This document shows, in pieces, positions 11,260 to 48,212 of a DNA stretch of 55,793 nt. Source of the stretch: a virus. Its lineage: Duplodnaviria > Caudoviricetes. Every line of letters starts with the position of its first letter. The stretch's first letter is position 1. The notes beneath the pieces are model-generated. The model ran no database searches and was not told the DNA's origin. It was given only the letters and a program-made list of their open reading frames with translations. Where the stretch lies: the IMG/VR virus record IMGVR_UViG_3300046011_004185, positions 1 through 55,793 of that record; one strand, written 5' to 3'. Both the position numbers and the translations under genes were made by a program.

Positions 11260-11261
11260 GG

Positions 11262-12305: not shown

Positions 12306-12307
12306 TC

Positions 12308-24986: not shown

Positions 24987-25400
24987 TTATAAATTGGAAA
25001 TTGGAATTTCTACTGGGTTATTTTCAATAACACCAAGCTCTACCAATACATCTGCAACTTGTTTTTTGAAGTGAATTTGTTCCCACATTTCAGAATTGGC
25101 TATAACTTCTGGATCAAGATCCAATGGAATATTTTCTAAATTTGCAAGAGATTTTCTTGTTGTTTCGCACTCAATACCAACAAGAGTTTGAATGTATGAC
25201 AAATCAGCATCTGGAGATTTTTGTGCCTCTATCGCTTCAATAGGAGGAGCGTAATCTTTTATGATTTGTTCTAATTCTTGTTGATTTTTTGGAAGAGGGT
25301 TTGTTAGCCTCAAACTTGCCCATGTTCCATCATCAAAAAATACCTCTAATGTTTTTAATTGATTATCAAATTTTGTAATTTTGTATTTTAATAAACTCAT
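24987..25400 (-). CDS. Hypothetical protein (possible adhesin chaperone)
   Basis: AT-rich, acidic, directly downstream of the Gly-rich adhesin. Confidence 0.6.
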   Translation of the reverse strand: MSLLKYKITKFDNQLKTLEVFFDDGTWASLRLTNPLPKNQQELEQIIKDYAPPIEAIEAQKSPDADLSYIQTLVGIECETTRKSLANLENIPLDLDPEVIANSEMWEQIHFKKQVADVLVELGVIENNPVEIPISNL

Positions 25401-29629: not shown

Positions 29630-30160
29630 CTAGGCTATCGCATAAGACCAGCCGGACTTATTATGACGACACCGCCATTGAATTGTCACGGCTGGAATGT
29701 TTAATTCCTTTGCTGCCTCGGTTGTTGAACCAAAAACACCAAAGGGGCTGACTACGGTCTTTGCTCGGTAATTATTGCTTCCACCAACAGCAATAGACAT
29801 TTTTGCTTTTACTTCAGGTCTGTGCATTACGTTTTTCTCGCCAATAGCCCAAGGTTTTGGCTTTCCTTTTAATGCCTCAGACTTCTTGCGCTTGGTCTCC
29901 TCGCTATTGGGTTTACCAAGGTTTCCGTCACGCACATTGATCTTTCCAAGGCCGATAAACACGTTGCCGACCTCATAGCAACCTTTATCACCTATACGGC
30001 ACATACAATATTTGTCTGCACCACGGCCACGTTGATCCCATTTACCGGAATCAAGCCAAATCTGTTTCCACTCATCAAAAGTCAATTTAACTTCTATGCC
30101 TCTAGTTTTGGCGTTTGACTTATGTTGCGTGTAGGCTTTGAGGAACGGATCTCTTGTCAT
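29630..30160 (-). mobile_element. Free-standing homing endonuclease (His-Me-like domain plus NUMOD3 and NUMOD1-like HTH)
   Basis: K.NAK.RGI...LTF.EW...W...RG.....YCMCR.GD.G.YEVGNV; GKPNSEETKRKKSEALKGK; F.S..EAA.ELNI. Confidence 0.75.
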
Positions 30161-33826: not shown

Positions 33827-36800
33827 TAAAAGGTACCTCCAAAAATTCCTGTTGTTGCCACCATAGTCCCGGCGGTCAAAGTATTAGTTGATGGATTGTA
33901 AGTAAGGTCAGAATCTACTTCTACCGCCTGATTTCCGGTCGTAGCATCAACAAAAGCTGGATAAAAAGTTGCGTTAACTGAGGTAGCAGTTACGGCAACA
34001 TTATTTGCATTCGTTGCGGTTCCAGCATTTGTTGCATTACCTACCGTAACCCCAGACGGGTCAGACCACTGCGGAGCTGTGCCGCTTGATGTCAAAAGGA
34101 ATGTTGAGCCGCCAATTCCAAGTTTGGTCAGGGCGGTTCCAGCGGAGTAGTAAACCAGGTCGCCGGCCGTGTATGAAGTTACCCCGGTTCCACCGTTTGA
34201 TGTCAGAACCGTGCCCGTAAGGCTGATGTTGGGGGTAGATCCGCCCGAGGAAGCCAAGGGGGCTGAGGCCGTAACACTCGATACGCCAGCAACTACTGCA
34301 GACCACTGGAATGCGCTCCCAGTCCACTCTAGGTAGGTGTTCGCTACCGTCGGGGCGGTCGCAAAGGTCGTGGTTCCTGCCCCGGACTGATAAAGGATCT
34401 GATTTGCGGCTCCACCAGCTACATTGGTGGCCGTTGTCGCCGTGGTAGCGCTGGTAGCGTTTGTGGCGTTTCCTACGGTAACCGTGGCGGGATCGGTCCA
34501 CTGGGGAGCCGTACCGCTCGAGGTAAGCATGTAGGTTGAGCTAGCAATACTCAGTTTCGTAAATGCCGTGCCGGCTGCGTAGTAGACCAGGTCACCTGCG
34601 GTGTATGAGGTCAGCCCAGTGCCCCCTAGCGAGGTCACAACCGGCGAGGTAAGGCTAAATTGTGTGCCGCTTAGGGTTAACCCTGTTCCTGCCGAATAAA
34701 CCTGAGATGCCGAGAACTGGGTAAAGGTCAGGTTTGTGGTGCCAATAATTATTGGGTTATTGGTCGTCAGTACATAAGACTCACCAGCCCCGGTTAAGCC
34801 CTCTTGGACAAAGAAATAGTCGCCTTGGCCAAGCCCAGTAATGCTGTCTGGCTTATAGGTGTTCTCGTTAGTCGCTCTCGTAAGAACCCAAGGGGTAGAC
34901 CCATCGCCTACCGTCGTGACCGTGTAGATGCCGTTATGGGCTGCGTTGGCCTGGTTATAGACCAAGACCCGGTTTGTAGCAGATAAGTTAATCCCATCGA
35001 TTTGGATGGCAGCGTTCGACCCAGCGTTGGTCAGGGTAGCCCCCACACCAGCGTTTACTAGGCCGCCAATCGTAAGCCCCGTGCCGTTTGTGAAAGTCGT
35101 GATCTCCGGTCCGTTATAGGACAGAGACAGAGTTACCTGGTTAGCCGCCGGTACCGAGAAGACATAGTAAGCAGTCCCGGCCACGATCCCGTTGGATGTG
35201 GACGAGAAGACGATCTGATCGTTTACCGAAAGGCTTGGGGATGTCGAAAATGTCAGGGTAGTGCCACCAACGATGTCCGTAACGGTCACCGATGTGCCGC
35301 CGGCAAGGTATGTGGCGTTCAGAGCGGTCGGGGTCTCCACCCGAACTGGGGTGTGTATTGTGATTCCTGTGGATACCGCATCGTCCACATACTGCTTGGT
35401 GGCCAGCTGCAGGGCCGTAGTTGGGGCTTGGGTGACCGTGACCGATGTCAGACCTGAGGGCGTAAGGCTATAAGACGGGGTGCCGCCGTTATTTACTAAG
35501 ACACCGGTTCCGGCTGCCAAAAATGTCGTTGCTCCAGCACCGGACTGGTACGGAATCGACCCTGCGGCACCGCCTGCAAGGTTTGTGGCCGTTGTGGCCG
35601 AGCCGACCGACAGGCTTGACTGATTAGTCCACTGCGGCGCGGTTCCACTAGAGGTAATGACTTGGCCGTTAGTACCGATAGCAAGTTTCGATAGTGCCGT
35701 CCCGGTGGCGTAATAAACAATGTCGCCAGCGGTATACGAAGTTAGTCCCGTGCCGCCGTACCCAGTGGCCAATGTTCCGGCCATGCTGATGACGCCGGAT
35801 GTCGTAACCGGGCCGCCCGAGAAAGTAAGGCCGGTAGATCCACCGCTAACATCCACCGAGGTAACCGTTCCAGCTCCTGGTAAAGCCGCCCAGGTGAAGG
35901 CACTGCCGGTCCACTTAAGAAATGTGTCTGTTGAGACTGGAGCCGATATAAAGCTAGTCGTATCTAATCCGGTTTGGAACACGACTTGATTGGCAGCTCC
36001 GCCGGCAACATTCGTAGCCTTGGTCGGGGTGCCTGTAAGGGTCAAAGTACCCGAGGTTGTAATCGGACCGCCAGTAAAGGACAGCCCGGTTGTGCCTCCC
36101 GATGCGTCTACAGAAGTGACCGTTCCATCACCGGTACCAAAGGTAAACCACGAGCCAGCATAACCCTCAAATTTTGAGCTTGTGGTGTTATATCGAATCT
36201 GTCCATTTGTTCCGCCTGGACGCTGCCCGGTGGTGCCTACTGGCACGGTTATTGCACCAGTGCCAGGAATTATTGGGTTATCCGATATTCCAATCGTCGG
36301 ATTTCCAGGGCCGGTGCCGTTAGCTACATCAATTTCATTAGTCGTGCCCGTAATCTGTAGGGCGGTGACGCTGCTGCCACTAACGATGCCCAAAATGCCC
36401 GTGCCGGCTAGGCCTGCAAGCGATCCTACGGTTCCTGAAAGGCTGATTGTCGGGTTGCCTGAGACACCATTGCCGTCAGCCACAGAAACGCCTGTAGAGC
36501 CTGTAATCGTGCGGCCGACCATGGTTGAAGCGCCGGTCTTTGCCTGCAGCCCCAAGGTTGAAGAAAAGAGGCTAGCCACGGCTCCGGCCAGACTGATCTG
36601 CATGGTGGACTGAGCGCCGCCGTCTGTAAGCCCAAGACCTGCACCGACGGACAGAGCCCGACTATTGGTAAGGCTAGGCTCTTGGTTAACCGTAATAAAG
36701 GTCTGCGTCTGACTCGGCGAGGCGGCAATCGCCCCGGTCGTGGTCTGTACGGTCTGACCGTTTTGGACGATAGGTACTGCCTCGGTACCCGTAATGGCGC

Positions 36801-36843
36801 CGGCGGCTGGTAGTTGGGTAATGGTGACTTGGGCTGAAGGCAT
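33826..36843 (-). CDS. Long tail fibre protein (1005 aa)
   Basis: Three GGTG(L/V)TSYTAGD(I/L)VYY repeats, two GTVTSVD.SGG.TGL.F.GGP.TTSG repeats, ATKQYVD, NGIY.VT; ends in GGTF. Confidence 0.8.
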   Translation of the reverse strand: MPSAQVTITQLPAAGAITGTEAVPIVQNGQTVQTTTGAIAASPSQTQTFITVNQEPSLTNSRALSVGAGLGLTDGGAQSTMQISLAGAVASLFSSTLGLQAKTGASTMVGRTITGSTGVSVADGNGVSGNPTISLSGTVGSLAGLAGTGILGIVSGSSVTALQITGTTNEIDVANGTGPGNPTIGISDNPIIPGTGAITVPVGTTGQRPGGTNGQIRYNTTSSKFEGYAGSWFTFGTGDGTVTSVDASGGTTGLSFTGGPITTSGTLTLTGTPTKATNVAGGAANQVVFQTGLDTTSFISAPVSTDTFLKWTGSAFTWAALPGAGTVTSVDVSGGSTGLTFSGGPVTTSGVISMAGTLATGYGGTGLTSYTAGDIVYYATGTALSKLAIGTNGQVITSSGTAPQWTNQSSLSVGSATTATNLAGGAAGSIPYQSGAGATTFLAAGTGVLVNNGGTPSYSLTPSGLTSVTVTQAPTTALQLATKQYVDDAVSTGITIHTPVRVETPTALNATYLAGGTSVTVTDIVGGTTLTFSTSPSLSVNDQIVFSSTSNGIVAGTAYYVFSVPAANQVTLSLSYNGPEITTFTNGTGLTIGGLVNAGVGATLTNAGSNAAIQIDGINLSATNRVLVYNQANAAHNGIYTVTTVGDGSTPWVLTRATNENTYKPDSITGLGQGDYFFVQEGLTGAGESYVLTTNNPIIIGTTNLTFTQFSASQVYSAGTGLTLSGTQFSLTSPVVTSLGGTGLTSYTAGDLVYYAAGTAFTKLSIASSTYMLTSSGTAPQWTDPATVTVGNATNATSATTATTATNVAGGAANQILYQSGAGTTTFATAPTVANTYLEWTGSAFQWSAVVAGVSSVTASAPLASSGGSTPNISLTGTVLTSNGGTGVTSYTAGDLVYYSAGTALTKLGIGGSTFLLTSSGTAPQWSDPSGVTVGNATNAGTATNANNVAVTATSVNATFYPAFVDATTGNQAVEVDSDLTYNPSTNTLTAGTMVATTGIFGGTF

Positions 36844-37184
36844 TATGGGCTCGGGCTAATTACATCGAGGTTGCCGTTGTTTTCCGGGGTGTCTTGGTTA
36901 CCCTGAGTTGATATCAGGAACTGGCCATAACCTCCGGTCTGCAACGCCGGTTGAACATTTGCAACGCTTACATCTGGCCTGGGGAAGCGAAGGTTAATTC
37001 GCTCAGTCTTCCTGGCCGGCAAGCGATAGGGGTCAAACTGATCCTTACATCCTTGATCGCAAACGCGCAGCCCCGGAAAGTTGGGGTCTGGGCTCATATT
37101 GACATACGGGCGCTTCATCTTGCACCGATCGCATATAGCAATCGCAACAGATGTCAGCCCGCGAGTGTCAAGGAATCGAGGCAT
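36843..37184 (-). CDS. Conserved Cys-containing virion protein
   Basis: AICDRC...GLRVC..C.D..DP...LRFPRPD. Confidence 0.65.
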   Translation of the reverse strand: MPRFLDTRGLTSVAIAICDRCKMKRPYVNMSPDPNFPGLRVCDQGCKDQFDPYRLPARKTERINLRFPRPDVSVANVQPALQTGGYGQFLISTQGNQDTPENNGNLDVISPSP

Positions 37185-38257
37185 TATCTTGTGTACACCG
37201 AAATGTTAGGTGCAAAGTAAATAGGCGACTTATCGCGCTCTTCTTGCTCTGCCTCGTAGATATAACGGTCTGACATCTTTTCAAGGTAGGCAATCCGATC
37301 TGGGGCCACATTGGGCATCTCTAAGGACATCCGATGGGCGAGCATGAATACCACCGCCTCGTACCACCGCTGGGGCACCTCGAGCTCGTCCGTCAGGGCT
37401 CCAACATCCATGATCTGCCTGGAGTACCAAACCGTCATTTGGATGAACGGGTCGTTTGGCACCGGCCATAGGTACATGGTCGGCTGCGGGATCGTGCGGT
37501 CAAACCAAAACTGATAGGGCTGGTTAGCCGTAAAGTTTTGATTTGGCAGGTTCGTGTAGTCGTCCCGGTTAAGCCTAGCCATCTGAATCAGTCGGGCGTT
37601 GTTACCCACATACCACTCGCGCAGGGCTAGGGTCGTGCCGCTGTAAGCCCTGACCCGGTAATACTCTACGGTCTGGCCAGGATCGACATCAGTCCAAATC
37701 CACTCGTTATCGGTTACGACTACTTGCCCCAGGTCCTCGAGCGTCCGCCAGGTCGTTCCGTCAACCGAATACTCATAGATGATATTCCAAGTAGCAGTAC
37801 CGCCGCCTGCAACATAAGGCAGGATGCCAATAGAACCGGCGTAAATAGGATTGTCAGTGCCATAGAAGACTGAGATGTTTCCGTTGGCTGAGGTTTGTTG
37901 ACAATAAGTGTCAATATCGGAGTCTGCGACAAAGCTAACTGTCCCCCCTGCACTTGTGGCGTAATCGCCGCTCGGACGGTTCATGGTGCGATAAAGCACA
38001 TTCAGGACATCAATACAGCCCAAGGGCATTGTATAAATGTACTGATCGGCCTTCAGACCAAAAACCTTCTTATTAATTGCCCAGTAATTGATGCCCCGGT
38101 TTGCTAAGGCAGACAAGGCAAAATACAACGACTCCCGGGCAGACAAAACCTGCTCGGATGTAAGCTCCTCAGCTAGCTTTCCGCATCTGCGAGCTCCATG
38201 GTCGATCATGGTTTGAACATTGATGACCGTGGTTGAAACGGTTCCTGAGTACGCCAT
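37184..38257 (-). CDS. Head-tail adaptor/head completion protein with an inserted beta-sandwich
   Basis: ANRGINYW, LNRDDY.NLPN, QFWFDR...YLWPVP, E.PQRWYEA...LA. Confidence 0.75.
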   Translation of the reverse strand: MAYSGTVSTTVINVQTMIDHGARRCGKLAEELTSEQVLSARESLYFALSALANRGINYWAINKKVFGLKADQYIYTMPLGCIDVLNVLYRTMNRPSGDYATSAGGTVSFVADSDIDTYCQQTSANGNISVFYGTDNPIYAGSIGILPYVAGGGTATWNIIYEYSVDGTTWRTLEDLGQVVVTDNEWIWTDVDPGQTVEYYRVRAYSGTTLALREWYVGNNARLIQMARLNRDDYTNLPNQNFTANQPYQFWFDRTIPQPTMYLWPVPNDPFIQMTVWYSRQIMDVGALTDELEVPQRWYEAVVFMLAHRMSLEMPNVAPDRIAYLEKMSDRYIYEAEQEERDKSPIYFAPNISVYTR

Positions 38258-38665
38258 TTACCACCCCGGACAATTCCAGCGTTTCATGGAAGCGCGGGCC
38301 CTACTTCCGCGCTCGCTTTTCTCAGCTACTGGCCCCATTCGTGCGCAGAATGAGTCCCTACGCTTTCCCCCCTGAGGTTGCGGTGCCTTGAGATTTGATC
38401 CGGTCTCCCGGTTATATTTTGCTCGACCTTTAGCGGTCAGTCCTGCGCCCTGGCTTGCCGGCAGCTTCTCGCCGCGACCAATAGCCAGGCTTACATCGCC
38501 ACCTTTTTTCATCTTCTCAGGCAGTTTGGCATAAGACTTTTTGCTTACATTAGCTTCAGTAAACTCAGCTGCTACAGACGGCTTAATTCCAACCTTCTTA
38601 GCAAACTTCGGGTTGTACTCGGCCGCCTTCATGAGCCTAAACTGAGCTTTTGACTTGGCTGGCAT
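38258..38665 (-). CDS. Basic protein, DUF6321-like C-terminal part
   Basis: GAGLTAKGRAKYNRETGSNLKAP...RRDSFCARM...RW.C; N-terminal MPAKSKAQ.RLM.A. Confidence 0.65.
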   Translation of the reverse strand: MPAKSKAQFRLMKAAEYNPKFAKKVGIKPSVAAEFTEANVSKKSYAKLPEKMKKGGDVSLAIGRGEKLPASQGAGLTAKGRAKYNRETGSNLKAPQPQGGKRRDSFCARMGPVAEKSERGSRARASMKRWNCPGW

Positions 38666-39253
38666 TTAAGCTACCTGTTGAACGCTAACAATTATTGAAG
38701 GAATTGCTGGGTAAGCTGGTGTTACCGACGCCGGCAAATGTTCAAGCGTTACCTGAGTCGATGATGGCAGCCAAAAAATCTGCACATAGTCAGCAGAATT
38801 TAAGTCCAAAAAGATATTCCAAGCTGCAACCATGTAACCAAAAATGTTTGATGTTTTTCTGGCGGGCACCGTAACAATCGTTGCCGAATTTGCCAAATCA
38901 GAGCCATTAACTTTAAACCAAATCACCACTTCATGTTGGGTGTTGTCTACATTTTTTAACTGAGCACTGAATTGCAAATCATAAATTCCAGTATTTGGAA
39001 CTGTAATTTGAGAACCGCTTACTAGCGTTACACCATCTGATACATCTTGAGTGTTGTAAGTAATTGCGGTGCCAGCAGAAATATTTCCTGTTTGATCTGT
39101 GCTATCACTCCAAGCACCGTAAGCCCGATTGTAAGCAATGATGTCGCCTACAGTTGTCTTTTTGTTGTCACCGCTTTGAACGATGGGGACTAATTCAGCA
39201 CCAGTTAACGGCAGCGTTGCCGCAGTCATTGCTGAGATCTTGGTATCTGCCAT
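38666..39253 (-). CDS. Head or tail fibre protein with a C1q/TNF-like C-terminal domain
   Basis: MADTKIS...L.G.E.VPIVQ.G; YGAW.D..DQ...TG.Y.LQFSAQL...IWFKVNG...DYVQIFW. Confidence 0.6.
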   Translation of the reverse strand: MADTKISAMTAATLPLTGAELVPIVQSGDNKKTTVGDIIAYNRAYGAWSDSTDQTGNISAGTAITYNTQDVSDGVTLVSGSQITVPNTGIYDLQFSAQLKNVDNTQHEVVIWFKVNGSDLANSATIVTVPARKTSNIFGYMVAAWNIFLDLNSADYVQIFWLPSSTQVTLEHLPASVTPAYPAIPSIIVSVQQVA

Positions 39254-39481
39254 TTAGGACTCCAGCTCAATCTTGTCGTTATTCTCCTGAAGGACATAAC
39301 CACTGCTTTCCATCAGGATGTAATAGGGTCCAGCGGAAACCGGTCCACGAACGATTACCGATTGGCCGCCCACATCATTTCCAAGGCCGTTGCTGGCGTC
39401 AGCCACTACACCAGATGCTTGACCTGGGTAGGTGTTAGCAAAATTCGCTACGAATTCAAAACCAACGCCATGGTCGGACAT
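39254..39481 (-). CDS. Small virion structural protein
   Basis: C-terminal YILMESSGYVLQENNDKIELES motif. Confidence 0.6.
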   Translation of the reverse strand: MSDHGVGFEFVANFANTYPGQASGVVADASNGLGNDVGGQSVIVRGPVSAGPYYILMESSGYVLQENNDKIELES

Positions 39482-39786
39482 TACGCAATTCCTGCCTGAA
39501 TGAGTTTTAACACCACGGTTCCATCACCTGAATTCATCGTCACTCGAATCGCTGTCACCGGGAAAGCATAGTTTCCGTCAGCGTTTGCAATTTGAGCGGC
39601 TACTGTTGGATGAGGAAACCATGTGGTAAACCCAACCGCTGGGTCATCAAAAGTATGCTGAACCGTGTAGTTCACAGTTCCGGTTTTAACAACCCCAAAG
39701 CCGACATTGAAAGGTGTGGCATTCAGGTTCATAACAATCGGTGTGCTTGAACCAACTCCCACCTGGGTTACAGTTTGTAGCTTCAT
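39481..39786 (-). CDS. Small beta-rich virion protein
   Basis: YTVQHTFDD...NYAFPVTAIR...IQAG. Confidence 0.65.
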   Translation of the reverse strand: MKLQTVTQVGVGSSTPIVMNLNATPFNVGFGVVKTGTVNYTVQHTFDDPAVGFTTWFPHPTVAAQIANADGNYAFPVTAIRVTMNSGDGTVVLKLIQAGIA

Positions 39787-39797
39787 GTCTAATCCTT

Positions 39798-39825
39798 AAA
39801 GAGCGGGGGCTTTCGCCCCCACCTC
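39798..39825 (-). terminator. Hairpin, probable terminator
   Basis: GGGGGC-GAAA-GCCCCC then GCTCTTT on the minus strand, just after the stop at 39828. Confidence 0.6.
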
Positions 39826-39827
39826 AT

Positions 39828-40937
39828 TTAGCACTTCACTCTACCGCCGCGCTTTTTGCCAGGCGTAACCGTTACTGATTTCTCAGTTTCGGTGACACTA
39901 TCACCAAATCTTCTGACAGGTTTTTGAATTTCATCAAGCATCTCTTGAAACATACGACGCTCGAAATCAGACTTAACGCCTTGGCCTTGAGCTTTTTCTT
40001 GCATTTTGCGCTCAGCATCACTAACTGAGCCACCAGACCGCATTTTCTTTCCGTATTTGCTATAGACCTCTACATCTTTAGTCTTAGCAGCCTTCATAGC
40101 GGGGGCGTTTTCTTTCTCAAATTGGCTATGCAGCCGCTTTTCAGCAGGCGTCATGACCGCGCCACCTTTTTTGAAGGTACCGGAAAGTTTGCTGATGCTT
40201 ACGGGTGTAGACGGGGTTTTATGGCCCTGGGGCATGCTTTCTGCCTTACCCGAGTCATTTACCGCTCCACCCTTAGCATACTTTTTTGCGGCACCACCTT
40301 TCTTGTAGCCGCCACCGTTACCCAGCTTCACGCCACCTGTTTTGGCAGGCGAGTGATCAGGCTTGGTCGTGACCATCTTGGTGTTTTTGTACTCACCAGC
40401 GTCACGGGAACCTTCTTTCTCGGTGATGATGCCGCCAGCGGCCTTTTTCATAACCTTGCCGCCGTACTTATAGCCGCCTTGACCGTATACCACGCCACCG
40501 GTTGCGTAACCGCCCTGACCTTTAACTACACCGCCAGTCTTCAGACCTTTGTGAGCTTTAGAGGCAGGCTTTCCGGCATGCTCTTTAAGTTTCTTGGCGA
40601 CATCGGATGTGGCTTTCGCCTCAGCCTTATGCTCGGCCATCGACTCCTCAGCCTCGCCACCTTTTTTCATCATGGCAGCGGCACGGCCTACGGGGGCGGC
40701 AGGACCGGCACCCATACCGCGCATCATGCGACGACGGTCAGCCAGTGCGGGACGCATCGGTGACTTACCAGGCATTGAACCACCGCGAGCAGGCATACCT
40801 GCCGGCATCGGGGTAGCGGTAGGTGCTAAGGCACCGCCCATTTGCATTTTCTTTTCTACTTTTCCACCTTTTTTGAGCTTTAACTCAATAGATGGCTCTG
40901 TGGTCATCATTTTGACCATCGGCTTAAACTGACCCAT
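39828..40937 (-). CDS. Basic low-complexity protein with about 12-14 [MYFLK]xxGGx[VILA] repeats (probable internal head protein)
   Basis: Start trimmed to MGQFKPM after AAGGAG; LKKGGKV, MQMGGAL, MKKGGEA, LKTGGVV, YATGGVV, YKYGGKV, KAAGGII, YKKGGAA, YAKGGAV, FKKGGAV, MRSGGSV, KKRGGRV. Confidence 0.75.
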   Translation of the reverse strand: MGQFKPMVKMMTTEPSIELKLKKGGKVEKKMQMGGALAPTATPMPAGMPARGGSMPGKSPMRPALADRRRMMRGMGAGPAAPVGRAAAMMKKGGEAEESMAEHKAEAKATSDVAKKLKEHAGKPASKAHKGLKTGGVVKGQGGYATGGVVYGQGGYKYGGKVMKKAAGGIITEKEGSRDAGEYKNTKMVTTKPDHSPAKTGGVKLGNGGGYKKGGAAKKYAKGGAVNDSGKAESMPQGHKTPSTPVSISKLSGTFKKGGAVMTPAEKRLHSQFEKENAPAMKAAKTKDVEVYSKYGKKMRSGGSVSDAERKMQEKAQGQGVKSDFERRMFQEMLDEIQKPVRRFGDSVTETEKSVTVTPGKKRGGRVKC

Positions 40938-41103
40938 TTTCTGGCTCCTTAGATTCGGTTGACTCAGGAATATCCAATCTGGCAACTAACGCATTCATGA
41001 CATCGATGGCCGCCTGAGATGCTACGGCCACATCATGTGCATGCTCGCGCTGCTTGATCATTTTGGAAATTTCTTCCTGCAAAAATTCCTTAGTGATCTG
41101 CAT
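40924..41103 (-). CDS. Small coiled-coil protein (59 aa; not in the ORF track)
   Basis: TAATG-coupled; MQITKEFLQEEISKMIKQREHAHDVAVASQAAIDVMNALVARLDIPESTESKEPENGSV. Confidence 0.65.
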   Translation of the reverse strand: MQITKEFLQEEISKMIKQREHAHDVAVASQAAIDVMNALVARLDIPESTESKEPENGSV

Positions 41104-41702
41104 TAACTAAAAGAAGCGTAGGCCGGGACATAGTAATCAGTGCCACCAATCCGAACCTTGATTGCCTTGGACACGGTAGCGACTGCGGTTGCCGTTGGGG
41201 CAATCGTTGCTGCTGGGCCAGATGCAATGTTGATCAGCGACTGCACTTCACCGGTCTGAGTTCCGCTATCCGTTACCCGGATAAAGGACGACTCTGCGCC
41301 CAAAGTCACATTGACGCTGTAGTCGGTGTCCAGCTGCAGAACAGCCAGAGTGCCGCCAGGAGTTGTTGCTGAGCCGCCCAAGGTTGCACGGATGGCGTTC
41401 GCTGCACCAGAGATCGTACCGGTGGTATTGATCGAGGTGGAGATGTGTGCGCCGTTAATCGTGCCGCCAGCCGCTGCACCTGCGCCGGTTACCCGGGTAA
41501 ATGCACGGAGCGTTTCGCCAGAGCCAGTGCTGGTGATATCCAGACGCTGATAAGAAAGACGGGTATCGCCAGTTGTTGCCGAGCTCGTTGCATAAGAGCT
41601 GGAGATATTTTGCGCAGAAGTTACGGAAATCGGATCTGCGGCACTGCCAGACTCAAAACCGTTGTTTGATCTTACTGGGCCGGAAAAAGTAGTACGGGCC
41701 AT
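41103..41702 (-). CDS. Putative capsid decoration/head fibre protein
   Basis: MARTTFSGPVRS.NGF N-terminus after AAAGGA; C-terminal IKVRIGGTDYYVPAY; first gene after the MCP. Confidence 0.65.
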   Translation of the reverse strand: MARTTFSGPVRSNNGFESGSAADPISVTSAQNISSSYATSSATTGDTRLSYQRLDITSTGSGETLRAFTRVTGAGAAAGGTINGAHISTSINTTGTISGAANAIRATLGGSATTPGGTLAVLQLDTDYSVNVTLGAESSFIRVTDSGTQTGEVQSLINIASGPAATIAPTATAVATVSKAIKVRIGGTDYYVPAYASFS

Positions 41703-41711
41703 GATATTCCT

Positions 41712-41784
41712 TTCGTGTAGTAGCACCTTGCCTTACTGTCTCTACTAAGTCTGCTAGGCCAGTCAGTAAGGCTAAACATCCTAG
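41712..41784 (-). ncRNA. Structured RNA downstream of the major capsid gene (Mu-gpT-DE-like candidate)
   Basis: Stem GCCTTACTG/CAGTAAGGC; loop CCTAG pairs with upstream CTAGG and loop TAGTAG pairs with downstream CTACTA. Confidence 0.55.
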
Positions 41785-41818
41785 AAAACCCCCACCGGAT
41801 CGCTCCGGTGAGGGGGTT
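41785..41818 (-). terminator. Rho-independent terminator after the MCP gene
   Basis: AACCCCCTCACCGGA-GCGA-TCCGGTGGGGGTTTT on the minus strand. Confidence 0.7.
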
Positions 41819-41824
41819 ACTTCT

Positions 41825-42739
41825 TTAGACTCCAGGAGTACCGTACATAGCACGGGGGTCCGTGAAGCCAACATCGTAACGCTCGGTTGCCTTGTACCGC
41901 ATGGTGTCGGTCTCAAAGTCACCTTCCATGGTCTTCTCCAGACCACGGCGCATCATCAGCTTCATGCCTTCCGGAGCGTCAGTCTGCACCCACCATGCGG
42001 TGGAGGAAGTCAGACGCGACAGAACAGCGGCACCCTCGTCGAGCAGTCCGATGGACTTGATCGGGTTGATGTCGTTGTCTGCGGTACCAGAACGCAGAAC
42101 GGACTTCAGCAGAACCTCGGCCTGGAAGACATTGCCCGGGGCCACCACCAGTTGGCGGGGAACCAGACGGATCTTCTTGCCGTTGTTGTCCACTGCCTGA
42201 CGGATCTGAATGAGCATCTGCTCAAGCGAGGTCTGTGACAGGTTAGCGGGCGTTGTCAGCAGGTTGCTGAAGGTGCCGTTTACGATCGGGTGCGAAGCGG
42301 AGTTCAGCTGAACGCCGTCGCCACCGGGGTAGGCACTGTTAAATGCGCGGTTAAGCACATTGGCCGACAGGGTCTCCTTGGTCTCGATCAGGGACTGAGC
42401 GAGATGGCGGGCATACACCTGGCCGATACGGATGTGGTCGCCGTCTTCAACAAGAACTTTGGTCAGTGCAAAGGCCAGGCCATAGACACTGTACACATAG
42501 CGCTTGAGGAAGAGCACACCGCCCTGCTGATAGGTAACCGGAGTTCCATCAGGCAGTTGCGGAGCTGCGCCAAATCCATAAAGGACCGGCTCTTCGTGAT
42601 AGTTACGGGGAATACCTTGTTGCTCACGGAAAACCCGTGACCACTCGTCGGTACGCTGATCATAGACTCCGTCGAAGCATTCATTGAGGATCGGCTCAAC
42701 TATGCTTCTAAAGTCGGTACTGCGCATCGGGGCTGCCAT
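41825..42739 (-). CDS. Major capsid protein (HK97 fold, Mu gpT-like family)
   Basis: EE..L.GFG.AP...G....Y, E...ANVLN.AF...GGDG..L....HP, P.QL.V.P, EGDFET..MRYKA.ERY..GF.DPR..YG.PG. Confidence 0.9.
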   Translation of the reverse strand: MAAPMRSTDFRSIVEPILNECFDGVYDQRTDEWSRVFREQQGIPRNYHEEPVLYGFGAAPQLPDGTPVTYQQGGVLFLKRYVYSVYGLAFALTKVLVEDGDHIRIGQVYARHLAQSLIETKETLSANVLNRAFNSAYPGGDGVQLNSASHPIVNGTFSNLLTTPANLSQTSLEQMLIQIRQAVDNNGKKIRLVPRQLVVAPGNVFQAEVLLKSVLRSGTADNDINPIKSIGLLDEGAAVLSRLTSSTAWWVQTDAPEGMKLMMRRGLEKTMEGDFETDTMRYKATERYDVGFTDPRAMYGTPGV

Positions 42740-42752
42740 TTATCTGCCCTCC

Positions 42753-43352
42753 TTAGATTGCGTTAACAGTACCTGCGTACTGCGACTCGCTGATTTGTAC
42801 CCGTACAATCGTGTACGCATCTCCCCACGCATTGTCTGGGTAGGGGGCTAGATCGATGACACGACACTGCTTGGCGTTACCCGAACCAGCAGCCGAGGTA
42901 CCTAAGGTAGCCTGCGACAGACCAGTTGTGGTGGAGCCGGCGGTCGAGTTCGTGATATCAAACTCGTCACCAATCGCGGTCTGAGACAGGGAACCATCTA
43001 CCTGGATCTCATAGACGATGTTGGCGTCTTGATAAAAATAAGCAATTACGGAGCCAACTTGGAAAGACTCGTTAGCGGGCCAGTAGTTGCTTACACGGCG
43101 ACGACCAGTGGCATCGGTCCACTCAACACCAGCGAAGGCACCTAAAAATGCCTCACCAGTTGCTGCAGGCTCGATCCAACCAGCGGTGTTCATCTTAACG
43201 GGTTGACCTTTCAGAATGTTGCTAGCAAAGCCAGCGGAGACATTACCTGAGGTCGAAACCGCTTGAATTCCGTTTGCAAGCGCGAAAGCACGATCCAAAC
43301 CAGAGGGATGGTATGCCGGGCGCAGGCCAAACGGAGCAGAGGTTGCACTCAT
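42753..43352 (-). CDS. Putative capsid cement/minor capsid protein
   Basis: APFGLRP...G.F.GVE.TD..G...YEIQ...G...TGLS; immediately upstream of the MCP. Confidence 0.7.
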   Translation of the reverse strand: MSATSAPFGLRPAYHPSGLDRAFALANGIQAVSTSGNVSAGFASNILKGQPVKMNTAGWIEPAATGEAFLGAFAGVEWTDATGRRRVSNYWPANESFQVGSVIAYFYQDANIVYEIQVDGSLSQTAIGDEFDITNSTAGSTTTGLSQATLGTSAAGSGNAKQCRVIDLAPYPDNAWGDAYTIVRVQISESQYAGTVNAI

Positions 43353-43390
43353 TTGCTACTCCTTAATGGTTGATAAATCCTCCCTTGCCA

Positions 43391-43927
43391 TTAAGAAAAG
43401 ATTGGCGCGGGAAGGGGTTTGTCAAGTTCGCCTAGTCCCTCGCCCTCAACCTGCCCGAGTCTTCGACCCGAACTGTCTTTGCCGACCTGTTGTTCCGCCT
43501 GCACCTTGATTTTATTTGCTTCCTCAAGAGGTTGATCGTGGTGAAAGTGGGTCATGATGGCCTGATAAATTTCTTCAGGAATCTTGAATAACAACATTTC
43601 ATTGCATGCGACATGACCAATGTGTTCGCCAGCCTTTACGCGATAATTTTCAAACCCTGAGATTTCATCGGCGCTAACCGGAACATACCCAAGGCGCATT
43701 CGCTTATCGATGCTGTCGTAACTATTAGTGGTTGAGAGCCAAACGACATGCCACCCAGGAATATGGGGGGCCTTTGGCAATGCTTCTGGCGTGAATTCAT
43801 CCTTCCACATCTTCAGACGCTCATCAGATGACACGAACATATCCTCCGGGGCCTTACGGCTTGCGTCCTCGCTAGCACGAGTTTCGCGTGATCCGGCAGA
43901 TACAGATTTTTTTAATCGAGAATCCAT
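43391..43927 (-). CDS. Conserved head-morphogenesis region protein
   Basis: PGW..VWLST...KR.RLGY.PV...LLFKIPEE. Confidence 0.65.
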   Translation of the reverse strand: MDSRLKKSVSAGSRETRASEDASRKAPEDMFVSSDERLKMWKDEFTPEALPKAPHIPGWHVVWLSTTNSYDSIDKRMRLGYVPVSADEISGFENYRVKAGEHIGHVACNEMLLFKIPEEIYQAIMTHFHHDQPLEEANKIKVQAEQQVGKDSSGRRLGQVEGEGLGELDKPLPAPIFS

Positions 43928-43936
43928 TGTTAGCTC

Positions 43937-44896
43937 CTATTTTCGTTGTGCTGCTTCACGGGCATATCGGGCAACCATCTTGGCCTTCATCTTGGGATCG
44001 TCCCAAAACCCAGCCTCTTTCATTGCTCGTACCTGCTCGACGCTCAAGGTAAAGGTGTTCCGGCTTCCGCCACCACCTGTCTCCCTCTCGCTTCCTGTCA
44101 CAACGCTTTTCGGACCTCTCTTTCTTGGAGTCTCGTAAGTAGAGTCAGTATAGGCATCACTTTCTTCATCCTGCAACTCAGTTTCAACTCGGGCGGAAAG
44201 CTCTTGCCAATAGGTTTGAGTCGCCGGGTTAAAACCTTCTCGAGCCAGTTGGGCATCGATCTGTTTGGCCATACGGCTTTTGGGATCGCCACCCTCTGGG
44301 TCGTACCAAGAGTTCTTTTCCATCCAACGCTTGGCGTACTTCTGAACCATGGGGCTCTCGGCTGCCTGGTAGACCTGAGCCTGCTGCTCTTGCTGAGCCT
44401 TCATTGCAGCCAGCTGGTCGTACCGATCCTTGGCGGCCATCATAGCCTCCTGAGCTCCCACTAAGGCGGTACCGTCAGCCTTATCGGTAGCCTCTTTCAA
44501 GCGGATCTTGGCGTACTTGATCCGAGCCTCCTCGTCTTCCATAGCCTTTTTGAGCTCGGCAAGACGCTTAGCCTCAATCTCCCGCTTAAAGGCGGCCATC
44601 TGCTCGCGCATCTCTTGGATCTCACGATCCTGAGCCGCAAGCCGCTCGTCCTTCTCGTTTTGAACCCGCTTGATGTACTCCTTCTTGGCCTTACGGCGGG
44701 CTCTCCTGGCCTCCCGGACGGCGTCTGTGTCGCCCGGTTGGTCTTGGTCTTCGTCCTCTGCCGGGGCGGCTTCAGCCTTTGGGGCCTCCTCCTGCTCCGG
44801 TTCATCGGTAAGCATGCTGTCAGGCAGCTCAACCGTTAGAGAACCGTCTTTTTCCTCGGAAATCTTTATATCTTCTTCTTTTGCTTCTGCGTTCAT
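43937..44896 (-). CDS. Scaffolding protein
   Basis: Acidic N-terminus, long coiled coil, W...NSWY, C-terminal LS.EQV.AMKEAG. Confidence 0.75.
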   Translation of the reverse strand: MNAEAKEEDIKISEEKDGSLTVELPDSMLTDEPEQEEAPKAEAAPAEDEDQDQPGDTDAVREARRARRKAKKEYIKRVQNEKDERLAAQDREIQEMREQMAAFKREIEAKRLAELKKAMEDEEARIKYAKIRLKEATDKADGTALVGAQEAMMAAKDRYDQLAAMKAQQEQQAQVYQAAESPMVQKYAKRWMEKNSWYDPEGGDPKSRMAKQIDAQLAREGFNPATQTYWQELSARVETELQDEESDAYTDSTYETPRKRGPKSVVTGSERETGGGGSRNTFTLSVEQVRAMKEAGFWDDPKMKAKMVARYAREAAQRK

Positions 44897-44905
44897 GATC
44901 TACCC

Positions 44906-45334
44906 CTATACGAAGGCTTTCATTGCAAGTGGATCTCCGGTCAACTTGGCAATCACCTCATGGTCATTAATCACCATGAATAGAGCCGGATCTTCTTCGC
45001 CTGGGACTTCTACCTCCCAGCGATCTCCACCCCACTTAGGAACACGCAAAAAGTCCCCCACCTCGCACCACGACCCCTCGGGCCACGGTTCCATGGTGTC
45101 TCGCTTTTTAAACGCCAAGGGGCCAATTTCCACGACTTTAGCCACCATGTTGTTCCACTTCTCGGTTTCCTTGGTTTCTTGAACCAAGATAATCCCAGCG
45201 CTTGTAGCCTTCTTTTTTGAGCGTCGCAGCTGAACTAGGATGCGGGCTCCAAGAGGTTTGGCACCGGGGTCTACGCTCGGAAATGCCCAAGCCAACTCAG
45301 CGTCGTTAGACGCTACCGGTTCATTCATCTTCAT
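44906..45334 (-). CDS. groES: GroES-like co-chaperonin
   Basis: KPLGARILV...TSAGIILV...AKVVEIGP...VGDF..VPKWGG...VINDHEVIA. Confidence 0.85.
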   Translation of the reverse strand: MKMNEPVASNDAELAWAFPSVDPGAKPLGARILVQLRRSKKKATSAGIILVQETKETEKWNNMVAKVVEIGPLAFKKRDTMEPWPEGSWCEVGDFLRVPKWGGDRWEVEVPGEEDPALFMVINDHEVIAKLTGDPLAMKAFV

Positions 45335-45506
45335 CGTCTTCCTTTAAAAGGTTATTCAGGATGTCTAAGGCCTCCTGTAGCCCTTGATGCTGGCCGACTA
45401 GCCGCTGATAAGACTCCCATGTATTCGCCATACCTCCAGCGAGGGACGAGGCTATTTCAGCCTGCCTAGTCTTAATCGAGCCAATCAGATCCGAAGTTGT
45501 GGTCAT
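45321..45506 (-). CDS. Small hypothetical protein
   Basis: L..G....ESYQRLVG...GLQEAL pattern; located between the portal and GroES genes. Confidence 0.7.
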   Translation of the reverse strand: MTTTSDLIGSIKTRQAEIASSLAGGMANTWESYQRLVGQHQGLQEALDILNNLLKEDDEDE

Positions 45507-45670
45507 TTTTCGTTAGCTTGTGCAAGACCCCCTTTCGGTTCCGATTTGGTATCCGAATTGGTTTTCTGCCCTTTAGGCTGTAGGCTTTCACCATCAAGAG
45601 GCACACCCATAGCCAGGCGGGCGTGGTAGTTAACCAGCTCGCTTTGCTGCTCTTTGTCGTAATCAGACAT
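45503..45670 (-). CDS. Small hypothetical protein (55 aa; not in the ORF track)
   Basis: AAGGAG RBS; MSDYDKEQQSELVNYHARLAMGVPLDGESLQPKGQKTNSDTKSEPKGGLAQANEK. Confidence 0.6.
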   Translation of the reverse strand: MSDYDKEQQSELVNYHARLAMGVPLDGESLQPKGQKTNSDTKSEPKGGLAQANEK

Positions 45671-45671
45671 T

Positions 45672-48212
45672 TCAGACTCCTTTGGTTAGTTCAAGGGCGG
45701 TCTTGTCCCGGTCTAGCTTCAGACGGGCCGCATCACGGGTTAGCCGTGCCGATTCGATGCGCTCCTTCATATCCATATCGCCAACAGCGATCGCGTATTT
45801 GTACTTCTGCTCCTCCATGGCGAGCTCAAAGTCGGCCTGCAGCCTGAGCGTTTCGCGCTCAATGTCAGCGGCCATTTCCCGATCCTTCAGTTGCATCTCG
45901 GCCTGATCTCGGGCGGCTCTGCGCTGGGTCTCAGCCATCGAGGTATCCAGAAGTACCTTGGCATCAGGGGTGAGCTGCGGCTGGGGCTGGAACTGCTGGC
46001 CAATCTGCATCATCTGCTGGATGACCGGCATGATTCCCTGCAGGGTCTGCTCAGTATCCATGCTGATATGTTGCGCTGCCATAGCGTAGAGCTTGTCGAT
46101 CTCCTTGGGGTTAGCAACCATGCCGTAGTTCTCGTGCGGCTTGCCTCCCATGGCCTGGTTCACATAGCCCTTAGCCCTGCCCAGATACCAAAGCACGATG
46201 TGCTGCTTGATGTGCTCCATGGCCTTGGCAATGAACTGCGGGGCAATCAGGGGGTTGCCGCCAAAGACGGGGTCTCGGGCGAAGTCTAGGTGGCTCTGTA
46301 TGTGAGCTAGGTGATCTTGTTCGGGATAAGCGTAGGCCATCTGCCCGATCGACATGGCCACATTCTCGTTGGCCGGGTCCATCTTCTCGGGCGGCGGCAC
46401 ATCGACCATCAGCTCGTTCACGCCAGGCACCTTGATCTGCTTTAAGAACCTAGAGATCACCGCCCGGCGGTTAAAGAGGTCAGGATTCTGCTGCATGATG
46501 GCCATAACCGCCTGGGTCTGCGCCATCCGCTGGGTTTCAGAGAAGATATGGGGGTCTGAGACCGGGACGATGTCGGTATTTCTTTGGAAATCCTCGCGGC
46601 TGATCTCTAAATCGGCGACCACATCGCCTTTTTTCATGTCCTCCAGGTACCAGCGGTTAATCCGCCCCAGAATCATGAGAACCCGGCGCTGGCTCTCGTG
46701 CAGACGGGCATGGATTGAGGAAAATACTGCCGCGCCCTGCTCAATTAAAGCCTGAGTCGTACCAACAGGGGTCTGAGAGTTCACATCGGCAATTTTTTCC
46801 TCTGCCGTTGTCACAACTCCCTTGGCGGCGTTCGTTAGCCAGCCCATAAGCTCCATAAGAACGGGGCTTGGCGGGTTAAACGGCATCGGCATGGCGAGCT
46901 TGCGGACATCATCCACCCCCGGAGCTGCTTCAATCTCCGAGACCTGGGTGATTTCCACCTGTTGGCTCTGCCCAGACACCTTTGCGCCCTTCAGCTTCAA
47001 GAGAGTAGCGGCGTTGTTGATGTGGGCAGAATCTAGTAGGGCCCTCAGGCTGCCCGTAAGGGCTGCTGCAAGGCCTCCAATGAGGTGTGGGAGGCCTACG
47101 GCATAGGCGCCTCGCCACGGAATGAATTTGAACTCTACGATCCAGTCTAATTTGGTCATGGAGTCGTCGCCTTCTTCCCAGTTTCGGTAAAGGCCTACGA
47201 CTTCGTTGTCCAGCTCATCGACCATCAGGATGTACGGGGCCATTTCGCCCTTTGTGTACTTGTCCTCTTCAATCTCTAAGAAGGTGTAGATGTGATAAAC
47301 GCGCCGGACACCATCCTCATTTTCGTCTGGCTCTTTGCCTTCAACCTTGAGGTTGGCTTTGGCGGGAGCAGTTTCCTCTGGGTAGGCCGTTGCACGGACC
47401 AAACTGATGTCCCGATACAGACCAGACGCGATCCGACGTCGGAATTCGTATTCAGTAATGTCCTGAATCTCAGTTATCCGCTGCGCCGTATAGAAATTAC
47501 CTGCGGCAAAGGGGAGAAGCACATTGTCGATCGGTAAAAACTCAGCACATGGGCGCTTTTTGCGCTCGTCGTACCAGAGTTTGATGTACTGCGAGCCTCC
47601 GAGGGGCAGCTGGGTAAGCATCTGCTCCTCTTCGTCCCTGAATTCTTCGATCTGCTCGGTGAGCTGCCAGTTCATCCAGTCGCGTTTGCGCTCAGAGGCT
47701 TGGACCTTGTTGTCATTTACATCACCCAGGATCTTGATTCGGGTCGGGCCGTCGGGCGGGAACATCTCCTTGATGGCTCGGGCAGCAAAATCCACGCAGG
47801 CCTCGGCCATAACGGGGTGAACGACCTTAGATGCGCCAGTGAACTGAGCTCCACCAGGGGCGTCGTTGCCCATTCCAGTGCGCCGAATGCCCTCTTCGTA
47901 CTGCTCATCGCGCTTTTTGCGGCTTTCCTTGTCCTTGCGGATCAAGTCTTGGTACTTCAGAGCCAGTTTCTGCAGGTCAAACGGGTCAAAGTCGTCTGAA
48001 TCCGCCAGGTTTTGGTAGAAATCCTCGTTCTCCATCGGCCCGTTGTTAGGCATTTTGACGATCGCTGAGCCATCAGGCAGCTCCTCAATGTCTGCCTCGG
48101 CCAGGTTGGGCATCTCTACCTCAACTTCGCCCTCTTCGGTCTGAGCAGTCGGGTCCTGAATGCTAGGAACAAAGCGGTTGTACTCAGGTTCGATCGGAAA
48201 TTCTTCGGCCAT
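45672..48212 (-). CDS. Portal protein
   Basis: F.GAS.V.HP.MAEA.V.F.ARA..E.FP..GP, LPL.GS...K, F.PWRG.Y..GL.HLIG, PVGTT.AL.EQ, PVSDP.IFS; C-terminal coiled-coil barrel. Confidence 0.9.
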   Translation of the reverse strand: MAEEFPIEPEYNRFVPSIQDPTAQTEEGEVEVEMPNLAEADIEELPDGSAIVKMPNNGPMENEDFYQNLADSDDFDPFDLQKLALKYQDLIRKDKESRKKRDEQYEEGIRRTGMGNDAPGGAQFTGASKVVHPVMAEACVDFAARAIKEMFPPDGPTRIKILGDVNDNKVQASERKRDWMNWQLTEQIEEFRDEEEQMLTQLPLGGSQYIKLWYDERKKRPCAEFLPIDNVLLPFAAGNFYTAQRITEIQDITEYEFRRRIASGLYRDISLVRATAYPEETAPAKANLKVEGKEPDENEDGVRRVYHIYTFLEIEEDKYTKGEMAPYILMVDELDNEVVGLYRNWEEGDDSMTKLDWIVEFKFIPWRGAYAVGLPHLIGGLAAALTGSLRALLDSAHINNAATLLKLKGAKVSGQSQQVEITQVSEIEAAPGVDDVRKLAMPMPFNPPSPVLMELMGWLTNAAKGVVTTAEEKIADVNSQTPVGTTQALIEQGAAVFSSIHARLHESQRRVLMILGRINRWYLEDMKKGDVVADLEISREDFQRNTDIVPVSDPHIFSETQRMAQTQAVMAIMQQNPDLFNRRAVISRFLKQIKVPGVNELMVDVPPPEKMDPANENVAMSIGQMAYAYPEQDHLAHIQSHLDFARDPVFGGNPLIAPQFIAKAMEHIKQHIVLWYLGRAKGYVNQAMGGKPHENYGMVANPKEIDKLYAMAAQHISMDTEQTLQGIMPVIQQMMQIGQQFQPQPQLTPDAKVLLDTSMAETQRRAARDQAEMQLKDREMAADIERETLRLQADFELAMEEQKYKYAIAVGDMDMKERIESARLTRDAARLKLDRDKTALELTKGV

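Follow-up and report, generated by a model that had tools for sequence, protein, structure and literature searches.

The analyzed window, i.e., the whole stretch of 55,793 bases, which is an entire virus record with a completeness of 99% as estimated by CheckV, was found to encode a seven-residue Gly-Gly motif that recurs in late proteins otherwise unrelated to one another and is most abundant in a protein of 369 amino acids (aa) encoded at 39828..40937, hereafter the repeat protein. Sequence comparison indicated that the motif is both enriched and conserved in three further unrelated families, namely, a large protein encoded between the terminase and portal genes (the pre-portal protein), a small DUF6321 protein and a giant internal virion protein. 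The motif lies in disordered segments, and its occurrence goes together with that of the repeat protein and of the large pre-portal proteins. These results support its reading as a functional signal common to these late proteins rather than as a quirk of composition, since it is enriched over composition-matched, locally shuffled and GG-fixed controls, is conserved, and falls within linkers and tails modeled with low confidence.

Motif Statistics and the Repeat Protein Family

The motif was described by two patterns, namely, a loose one, [MYFLIVWK]xxGGx[VILAM], and a strict one, [MYFL][KARQ].GG.[VIAL], the latter taken from a logo of the repeat family that was built from 187 proteins with 1033 unique GG contexts. 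In this logo, M, Y, F or L occupied position -3 in 65% of contexts, K or A occupied position -2 in 68%, and V, A or I occupied position +3 in 48%; K was often found at +4 and was enriched at -5, -4, -2, -1 and +4 around GG. The residue next to GG was A, M, V, Y, E or S, with no dominant class, and positions -4 to -6 carried no more than 0.41 bits.

The repeat protein is Lys/Gly-rich (G 57, K 57, A 40 and M 25 of 369 aa), has a net charge of +40 and contains 17 GG sites, which correspond to 18 overlapping heptamers. The numbers of GG dipeptides and loose motifs were 18 and 13, whereas 8.6 and 0.86, respectively, were expected from 300 whole-protein shuffles. The strict motif was present in 10 copies, with 0.13–0.15 expected when residues were shuffled inside windows of 15 or 30 aa and 0.27 expected when the GG pairs were fixed and their flanks shuffled; the highest count in 1000 shuffles was 3. 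An earlier reading made from the letters and open reading frames (ORFs) of the window, hereafter the sequence-only reading, had counted about 12–14 copies in this protein and had named enrichment over a composition-matched background as a test, and these counts agree with both. The codons at the GG sites were GGTGGC (6), GGCGGT (4), GGCGGC (4), GGTGGA (2) and GGTGGT (2); since synonymous codons vary, the constraint acts on the protein and not on a DNA word, and a DNA-level repeat as the cause of the motif was ruled out. The ESM Atlas model of the exact sequence had a predicted local distance difference test score (pLDDT) of 0.42 and a predicted template modeling score (pTM) of 0.14, which indicates disorder, so the protein is predicted to be disordered.

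Relatives of the repeat protein were numerous: 4888 of 8000 scored candidates from a 90%-clustered protein collection matched at E ≤ 1e-3, and at least 577 of 597 candidate stretches of IMG/VR encoded one. In an alignment of 18 members, whose best-segment identity to the window protein was 44–99%, the first 35 residues were near-invariant and most GG motifs invariant, individual GG sites being unchanged among relatives of 44–100% identity. The N-terminus, MGQFKPMVKMMTTEPS.ELKLKKGGKV, is invariant, and the C-terminus of the window protein is KRGGRVKC; a terminal Cys was present in 183 of 186 members, and the ending GG-x(0-4)-C in 182 of 186. Members had 14–22 GG sites each, and insertions consisted of extra short GG units, e.g., MACATGG or YKTGGVVMGQGG. 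Longer or fused forms were found in 4 of 7999 candidates; all of them were expanded arrays without an added Pfam domain, and the interpretation of longer forms as fusions to other domains was thus rejected. No Pfam or PHROG family matched the repeat protein. A tblastn search with the repeat protein and a megablast search with 36000..48000 against 50,697 phage records gave no match; the blank tblastn result is uninformative, because the low-complexity filter hid the homologue in the metagenomic record MW202545.

Distribution among Related Phages

The capsid and portal proteins tie the window phage to Caulobacter phages RW, KcrB, RLK and GB2A (capsid 77% identical), and the capsid protein of MW202545 is 89.5% identical to that of the window. 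Pelagiphages HTVC023P and HTVC027P, roseophages CRP-901 and CRP-902 and Planktothrix phage Pag-Yong1 are more distant kin by the same proteins; the HTVC023P type is termed Podoviridae in a published abstract.

MW202545 encodes the repeat protein, and RW, HTVC023P and CRP-901 lack it; Pag-Yong1 contains a marginal match only (E 0.001) with an internal stop. All seven genomes with the repeat protein (the window, five related complete genomes designated G001–G005, and MW202545) have large motif-bearing pre-portal proteins, and six of the seven show a proteome-wide excess of the motif, e.g., 14 observed vs. 1.4 expected in MW202545; the corresponding values for Pag-Yong1 were 6 and 3.1. Genomes without the repeat protein showed no such excess (RW, 3 vs. 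2.0; HTVC023P, 2 vs. 1.4; CRP-901, 1 vs. 1.3). In the annotated regions of RW and Pag-Yong1, no protein-coding gene lies between the terminase and portal genes, and in that of HTVC023P there is one only, encoding 201 aa.

The N-terminal signature of the repeat family was found in none of 80 RW-like loci. In RW-like phages, the region downstream of the capsid gene contains genes of a different family of small Lys/Met-rich proteins with 3–5 strict motifs; this family may be distantly related or analogous to the repeat protein. Its members begin with MGC(K/T)YVKEFDFG; a fusion to DUF6496 or DUF6321 is seen in some, and a terminal Cys in some (L180:4156-4737, L204:8866-9564, and loci L218, L209, L202, L192 and L161).

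Motif in Other Late Proteins

The strict pattern was scanned in all ORFs of six complete genomes (the window and G001–G005). Beyond the repeat protein, matches were found in the pre-portal protein, the DUF6321 protein, the C-terminal region of the giant protein and the capsid protein, with five isolated matches elsewhere among the ORFs. When the repeat protein was left out, each genome had 3–6 matches vs. 1.4–1.8 expected (P 0.004 to 0.17).

Apart from the repeat protein, the motif was carried chiefly by pre-portal proteins. The window's own protein of this type (48224..52111, 1295 aa) contains four strict motifs vs. 0.16 expected. Among 28 unique pre-portal ORFs, 27 contained the motif (50 matches vs. 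2.2 expected); 14 of the 50 matches fell within the last tenth of the protein, and many other copies were internal. When the window protein was added, the 29 sequences contained 54 matches vs. 2.6–2.9 expected from shuffles inside windows of 15 or 30 aa and 5.73 expected with GG fixed (maximum of 13 in 300 shuffles). BLAST similarity to the 1295-aa protein was missing in 10 of the 28 ORFs. In the AlphaFold2 (AF2) model of its residues 300–1295 (mean pLDDT 63), the four strict sites of the protein lay in blocks with a pLDDT of 27–50, whereas GG pairs of the folded core lay in blocks of 77–92. The remark of the sequence-only reading that the motif occurs mostly in linkers and tails was thus borne out by the low-confidence regions of this model and that of the repeat protein. 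No Pfam family above the cut-off and no PDB sequence match were found for the 1295-aa protein, and a fold search with residues 300–1295 against PDB gave no match at E ≤ 0.001 and no identified domain.

The motifs of pre-portal proteins occur where domains are inserted or exchanged, as with the ART domain in G003 vs. G004, and GGA[VM] followed every ART-PolyVal domain inspected. ART-PolyVal, LPD23 and ParB_N were detected in the pre-portal ORFs of G002, G005 and G003, of which only that of G002 had a blastp link to the window protein; these domains identify the three as polyvalent proteins sensu Iyer et al. 2017. According to the main text of that article (PMC5512222), effectors of the polyvalent type are packaged into the phage head. 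The words 'linker', 'glycine' and 'GG motif' do not occur in its main text; its supplementary alignments might show these linkers. The G002 protein (L104:92-4822) is 1576 aa in length and comprises ART-PolyVal, LPD23, a ParB_N-like segment and a zincin-like HEMQH motif, with a GG motif before or after each unit. Autoprocessing by a zincin was considered and rejected, as HExxH occurs in the pre-portal protein of only one of the six complete genomes and in none of the window.

The small protein 38258..38665 matched Pfam DUF6321 at residues 74–130 (53.9 bits vs. a cut-off of 28.5), which was also the family in the precomputed annotation of 120 homologues. Its 135 aa comprise an N-terminal KSKAQ module, the junction MKKGGDV (nt 38492..38512) and the C-terminal DUF6321 module. 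Proteins of this family are modular, with the KSKAQ module followed by optional inserted modules and then by the DUF6321 domain; each of the 49 unique fused forms had [MFLYK]-x-x-GG immediately ahead of the DUF6321 module, and inserted modules were bounded by the motif too. In HTVC023P, the domain is preceded by FKRGGDV. Among the six unique stand-alone DUF6321 modules, five begin with M(A/S)KKN, without GG, and one keeps MAKGG; the upstream ORF with the other modules, found in loci L050 and L077, ends in ...AKVK, likewise without GG. Conservation in homologues, which the sequence-only reading had named as a check on a shared signal, was seen both in the fused forms and in the GG sites kept by the repeat family. 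In L050:3995-4521 and L077:2337-2863, the break in the DUF6321 gene coincides precisely with the GG junction, and the two module ORFs overlap by 4 nt; further genes broken there, or cut down to the DUF6321 module, occur in L034, L046, L070 and L078.

In the giant protein (12308..17554), the C-terminal motif cluster MAAAQGGLATPLMARGGLSSYAGGGLP lies just upstream of a conserved domain, GDGQSDDIPAMLADGEFV (about 12311..12577), and was conserved in kind in five of five related complete genomes. Between one and three PHI-A-x-GG units (PHI = M, Y, F or L) preceded the conserved domain GDGQSDDIPAMLADGE[FY]V in 6/6 complete genomes, although the protein varied in length from 672 to 2468 aa, and the same arrangement of motif and then domain was found in Caulobacter phage RW, Pag-Yong1, HTVC023P and MW202545. 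The internal protein of RW ends with YMDGGRV, and one small protein of MW202545 ends with FKKGGKVNW. The gene of the giant protein has neighbors with matches to a DNA ejection protein and to an endolysin-domain-containing internal virion protein. It should be noted that the C-terminal domain itself (GDGQSDDIPAMLADGEFV...GNGSTKAGS..L, 12311..12577) also occurs in RW, Pag-Yong1 and HTVC023P and is duplicated in MW202545, and that no Pfam or PHROG family covers it.

All instances named in the sequence-only reading are literally present in the sequence. Its statement that they are shared by unrelated proteins held for the three families described above; the AAQGGLM tail of 11262..12305, with a comparable C-terminal motif in only one of five homologues, and PKGGLA of 45503..45670, matched in none of 15, are not conserved. 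Nor is the capsid protein free of the motif, as had been suggested, since it contains one conserved match, YQQGGVL at residue 70, in 6/6 complete genomes, which is probably a folded segment.

Possible Roles of the Motif

We tentatively favor a role of PHI-[K/A]-x-G-G-x-[V/I/A] as a multivalent docking motif by which head-internal proteins co-assemble. Such a motif would sit in disordered junctions and tails of proteins packaged in the head and probably ejected, the cargo being the polyvalent-type pre-portal protein, the small DUF6321 protein and the giant internal virion protein, while the repeat protein would be a disordered, strongly basic carrier of 10–20 motifs. During procapsid assembly, the motifs would be read by one common multivalent partner, for which the inner face of the capsid, the scaffold, the portal ring and the motifs of neighboring chains are candidates, and the repeat protein would form a multivalent matrix keeping the motif-bearing cargo in the head. 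We infer the location of the bearers inside the head, the binding rather than the cutting of the motif and the identity of the partner. Docking is supported by the non-random flanks of GG, the many and variable copies, the terminal positions, as in loading tags, and the disordered location of the motif; moreover, the pre-portal and giant proteins are probably head-internal cargo, and motif-rich cargo co-occurs with the repeat protein. The assembly layout, with a separate scaffold-like gene, without a delta domain and without a recognized protease, supports it as well; this arrangement is that of T7 and P22, where binding rather than cleavage brings the internal proteins into the head. It is unlikely, although worth stating, that the disordered repeat protein fills the procapsid as a 'sticker and spacer' matrix, drawing in effector and ejection proteins via the Gly-Gly stickers that it shares with their linkers and tails. 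This matrix would be a phage counterpart of encapsulin loading via a multivalent carrier rather than one-to-one tagging, and the carrier might additionally be tethered by its invariant C-terminal Cys.

Several points speak against docking. No receptor for the motif was identified. The junction data (motif in 49/49 fused forms, KKN in 5/6 stand-alone forms) fit a junction-specific role better than a tag. The known short motifs shared by unrelated phage head proteins, namely, LxE of T4 and S/A/G-x-E of the phiKZ type, are protease sites. The location in the head is not backed by any virion proteome, and the only record with the repeat protein among the five named ones searched is a metagenomic assembly. 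Finally, beyond the repeat protein, no single genome shows more than a modest excess of the motif, whereas the signal at the level of families is strong.

Proteolysis is ranked as a close rival of docking, although we consider it rather doubtful: modular head proteins of polyprotein-like build and the repeat protein itself would be cut at or after GG by an unrecognized phage or host protease, which would free small basic modules or peptides and trim short C-terminal extensions. It would account for motifs lying exactly at module boundaries, including those of all 49 fused DUF6321 proteins, for gene splits at the junction and the loss of GG in five of the six stand-alone modules, for domain insertions that abut motifs in pre-portal proteins and for the sequence specificity seen in the logo on both sides of GG; the ending GG-x(0-4)-Cys also resembles the one-residue extensions that ubiquitin precursors carry. 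Processing of polyvalent proteins by embedded peptidases is predicted in the main text of Iyer et al. 2017 (PMC5512222), and the G002 protein contains HEMQH. However, no protease was recognized: scans of 47 ORFs of the window (Pfam and/or PHROGs) gave only an M15 cell-wall peptidase, and six-frame searches of the whole genome for Peptidase_S78 (PF04586), C48 (PF02902) and C5 (PF00770) gave no match at E ≤ 1. No prohead protease (S77/S78) was found in the head module by PHROGs, Pfam or PF04586, PF03420 (S77) not being searched separately, in line with the sequence-only reading, which had recognized none. No window protein contains H[ED]xxH, GG sites 5–7 residues apart in residues 132–170 of the repeat protein would give useless fragments of 5–9 residues, and the distance between GG and the hydrophobic residue is larger by one position than in the consensus of adenain, PLpro and ubiquitin-type sites. 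The sequence-only reading had offered a loading tag and a GG cleavage site as examples of a shared signal; the general inference of a shared signal is supported, and the evidence on the two mechanisms points both ways.

It is improbable that the motif contacts DNA as a turn resembling AT-hook or SPKK motifs, with a histone-like repeat protein condensing the packaged genome and the other bearers using the motif to stay attached to DNA. The net charge of the repeat protein, the enrichment of K around GG, the small and very basic modules joined by the motif (DUF6321, DUF6496 and ParB_N) and a genome of 55.8 kb vs. a capsid protein of only 304 aa are consistent with it, whereas strong M/Y/F/L at -3 and V/I at +3 would not be expected of a groove-binding basic turn, and loading is left unexplained, because, to our knowledge, proteins cannot enter the capsid on DNA through the portal. 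Similarly small is the probability that the motif is a passive flexible hinge, i.e., a linker composition favored by the lineage without a specific reader, and the repeat protein an entropic spacer. In favor of a hinge, Gly-Gly confers flexibility in general, the motif occurs only in linkers and tails modeled with low confidence, and it is lost when modules are separately encoded; however, the positional preferences survive local shuffles (54 vs. 2.6–2.9) and fixed GG (54 vs. 5.7; 10 vs. 0.27), individual sites are invariant across relatives of 44–100% identity, and the motif also occurs at extreme C-termini, where a hinge is unneeded. Mimicry of the GroES mobile loop (K-x-x-GG-I-V-L), by which host GroEL would be recruited or occupied together with a phage GroES-like protein, appears very improbable. 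A Cpn10-family protein is indeed encoded between the portal and scaffold genes, and the mobile loops of relatives (KTKGGII, KTKGGVI, KTAGGIL and KTAGGII) match the loose motif. However, binding by the GroES loop involves a hydrophobic tripeptide that immediately follows GG, whereas the cargo motif has one hydrophobic residue after GG, with only a preference for V, A or I at +3, and the position adjacent to GG is often charged; furthermore, RW, HTVC023P and CRP-901 encode the GroES-like protein but not the repeat protein, and the window's own mobile loop, SAGIILV, is without GG.

Candidate Partners of the Motif

Capsid Cys21 (LNECFDG) was present in 47 of 47 readable capsid genes of genomes with the repeat protein and was invariant in 16 of 16 sequences compared. 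It is absent from the capsid proteins of RW, CRP-901 and HTVC023P; all 78 RW-like capsid genes that could be read have Glu, Val or Ser at this position, and no Cys at all occurs in the capsid protein of RW. From these sequences, a disulfide tether between the terminal Cys of the repeat protein and Cys21 is conceivable; as an explanation it was tried and set aside, given that RW-like phages have Cys-bearing GG-rich proteins without a capsid Cys at this position. The co-occurrence of Cys21 and the terminal Cys is kept as a side note only, since effectively one lineage is concerned.

The 319-aa protein 43937..44896 matched no Pfam or PHROG family, and its position and composition alone suggest a putative scaffold role. 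A complex prediction with the capsid protein, the scaffold-like protein, the 178-aa protein and residues 1–60 of the repeat protein gave a score of 0.00 without controls, which counts neither way. The 178-aa protein (43391..43927), found in all relatives examined and assigned to no family, contains invariant H60, S65, D71, D74, C108 and H129 and a CNEM motif. Its AF2 model was weak (pLDDT 62); Foldseek against PDB gave no match at E ≤ 0.001, and the best VIA-align result (Z 5.1) covered a helical stretch only. No protease-like match that would point to a hidden protease was obtained for it, a result that the weak model makes uninformative. The place of the Cpn10/GroES-family gene in the head module is kept in RW, HTVC023P, CRP-901 and Pag-Yong1.

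Comparison with Known Systems

Internal head proteins of T4 and phiKZ carry capsid-targeting sequences (T4) and a prohead-protease motif; there, a prohead protease is present and the motif ends in Glu. The present system resembles them in that a short signal occurs in accessible terminal or linker segments of unrelated, probably head-internal or ejected proteins, including an effector of the ADP-ribosyltransferase type. It differs in that no protease was found, the motif is PHI-K-x-G-G, its positions are internal, C-terminal and N-terminal, and one protein consists of 10–20 copies. The adenovirus protease consensus, (M/I/L)XGG-X, occurs in core and cement precursors; cleavage of one of these yields a small basic peptide that binds DNA. 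Here, too, several basic and probably internal virion proteins share Gly-Gly preceded by a hydrophobic residue; however, if the cut follows GG, this residue is at P5, whereas it is at P4 in the adenain consensus, and, unlike in adenovirus and Ulp systems, no clan CE protease (Peptidase_C5 or C48) matched in the window genome at E ≤ 1. Encapsulin cargo proteins have short Gly/hydrophobic tags, often followed by a basic residue, in disordered termini and end up inside an HK97-fold shell. Part of the present motifs are likewise terminal, with several proteins ending in the motif, and many other copies are internal; the tag is highly repeated, there is no sequence relationship, and shell binding is only proposed here. 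A double-glycine bacteriocin leader is a single N-terminal segment of 15–30 aa that ends in GG and has periodic hydrophobic positions, whereas the present motif is internal, C-terminal and repeated 10–20 times; C39 peptidase was not searched for. The pre-portal proteins of G002, G005 and G003, with ART-PolyVal, LPD23 and ParB_N, resemble the polyvalent proteins described in the main text of PMC5512222, from which the window's own 1295-aa protein differs in having no Pfam domain above the threshold.

Thus, the motif differs from the T4/phiKZ, adenovirus and encapsulin signals in register, position or copy number, and no defining partner of these systems was found for it. In the literature searched, neither the motif nor DUF6321 or DUF6496 was described in the role of a shared signal, and searches on Gly-Gly cleavage or capsid-targeting sequences in phages turned up no such motif. 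The shared Gly-Gly signal looks new, with the repeat carrier as its most unusual feature. It is poorly understood how podoviruses without a prohead protease choose the proteins borne in the head, and the mechanism by which phages load polyvalent effector proteins is not known. A seven-residue signal present in effector-type, ejection and small basic proteins would make the question of head loading testable, and a dedicated protein built of this signal strengthens the case. As the carrier family is large, the signal is common in nature, whatever its role; should it serve as a loading tag, it might also offer a means of filling phage capsids with foreign proteins.

Layout of Late Genes and Other Observations

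Late genes were assigned from Pfam and PHROGs scans of the ORFs of the window (Table 1). They lie on the minus strand in the order of small terminase, large terminase, 1295-aa protein and portal, followed by the GroES-like, acidic 319-aa scaffold-like, conserved 178-aa, conserved 199-aa and major capsid proteins, then by the 207-aa, 59-aa and 369-aa repeat proteins, three small proteins and the DUF6321 protein, and finally by the SU10-like adaptor, the tail genes and the internal virion proteins at 8333..17554, which include one with a transglycosylase domain and the giant protein.

Table 1. Late-gene features and motif positions in the window.
Feature	Coordinates	Strand	Remarks
Small terminase		minus	Sf6-like
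Large terminase	52165..53583	minus	
Pre-portal protein, 1295 aa	48224..52111	minus	between terminase and portal genes
Strict motifs of the 1295-aa protein	MAEGGAV 50834..50854; YAAGGEV 50756..50776; FKEGGAV 48359..48379; LATGGAI 48296..48316		
Portal	45672..48212	minus	
GroES-like (Cpn10-family) protein	44906..45334	minus	between portal and scaffold genes
Acidic coiled-coil-like protein, 319 aa	43937..44896	minus	scaffold position; candidate receptor
Conserved head-module protein, 178 aa	43391..43927	minus	
Major capsid protein, 304 aa	41825..42739	minus	without delta domain; PHROG major head protein; candidate receptor
Repeat protein ('GG protein'), 369 aa	39828..40937	minus	ATG at 40937
DUF6321 protein, 135 aa	38258..38665	minus	directly upstream of adaptor gene
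SU10-like adaptor	37184..38257	minus	
Giant internal virion protein, 1748 aa	12308..17554	minus	
Motif cluster MAAAQGGLATPLMARGGLSSYAGGGLP	12599..12679	minus	C-terminal region of 12308..17554

Among the tail genes, the ORF 29630..30160 (minus strand) contains a NUMOD3 motif, which is a DNA-binding motif of homing endonucleases, and the GC content falls to 0.40–0.44 at 24001–26000 and 30001–32000. Two very Gly-rich proteins are encoded on the minus strand of the tail region at 27159..28442 and 25397..26311 (34% and 28% Gly, respectively) and are probably fiber-like; they contain 66 and 25 GG pairs, respectively, with no strict motif in either and with one and zero loose motifs.

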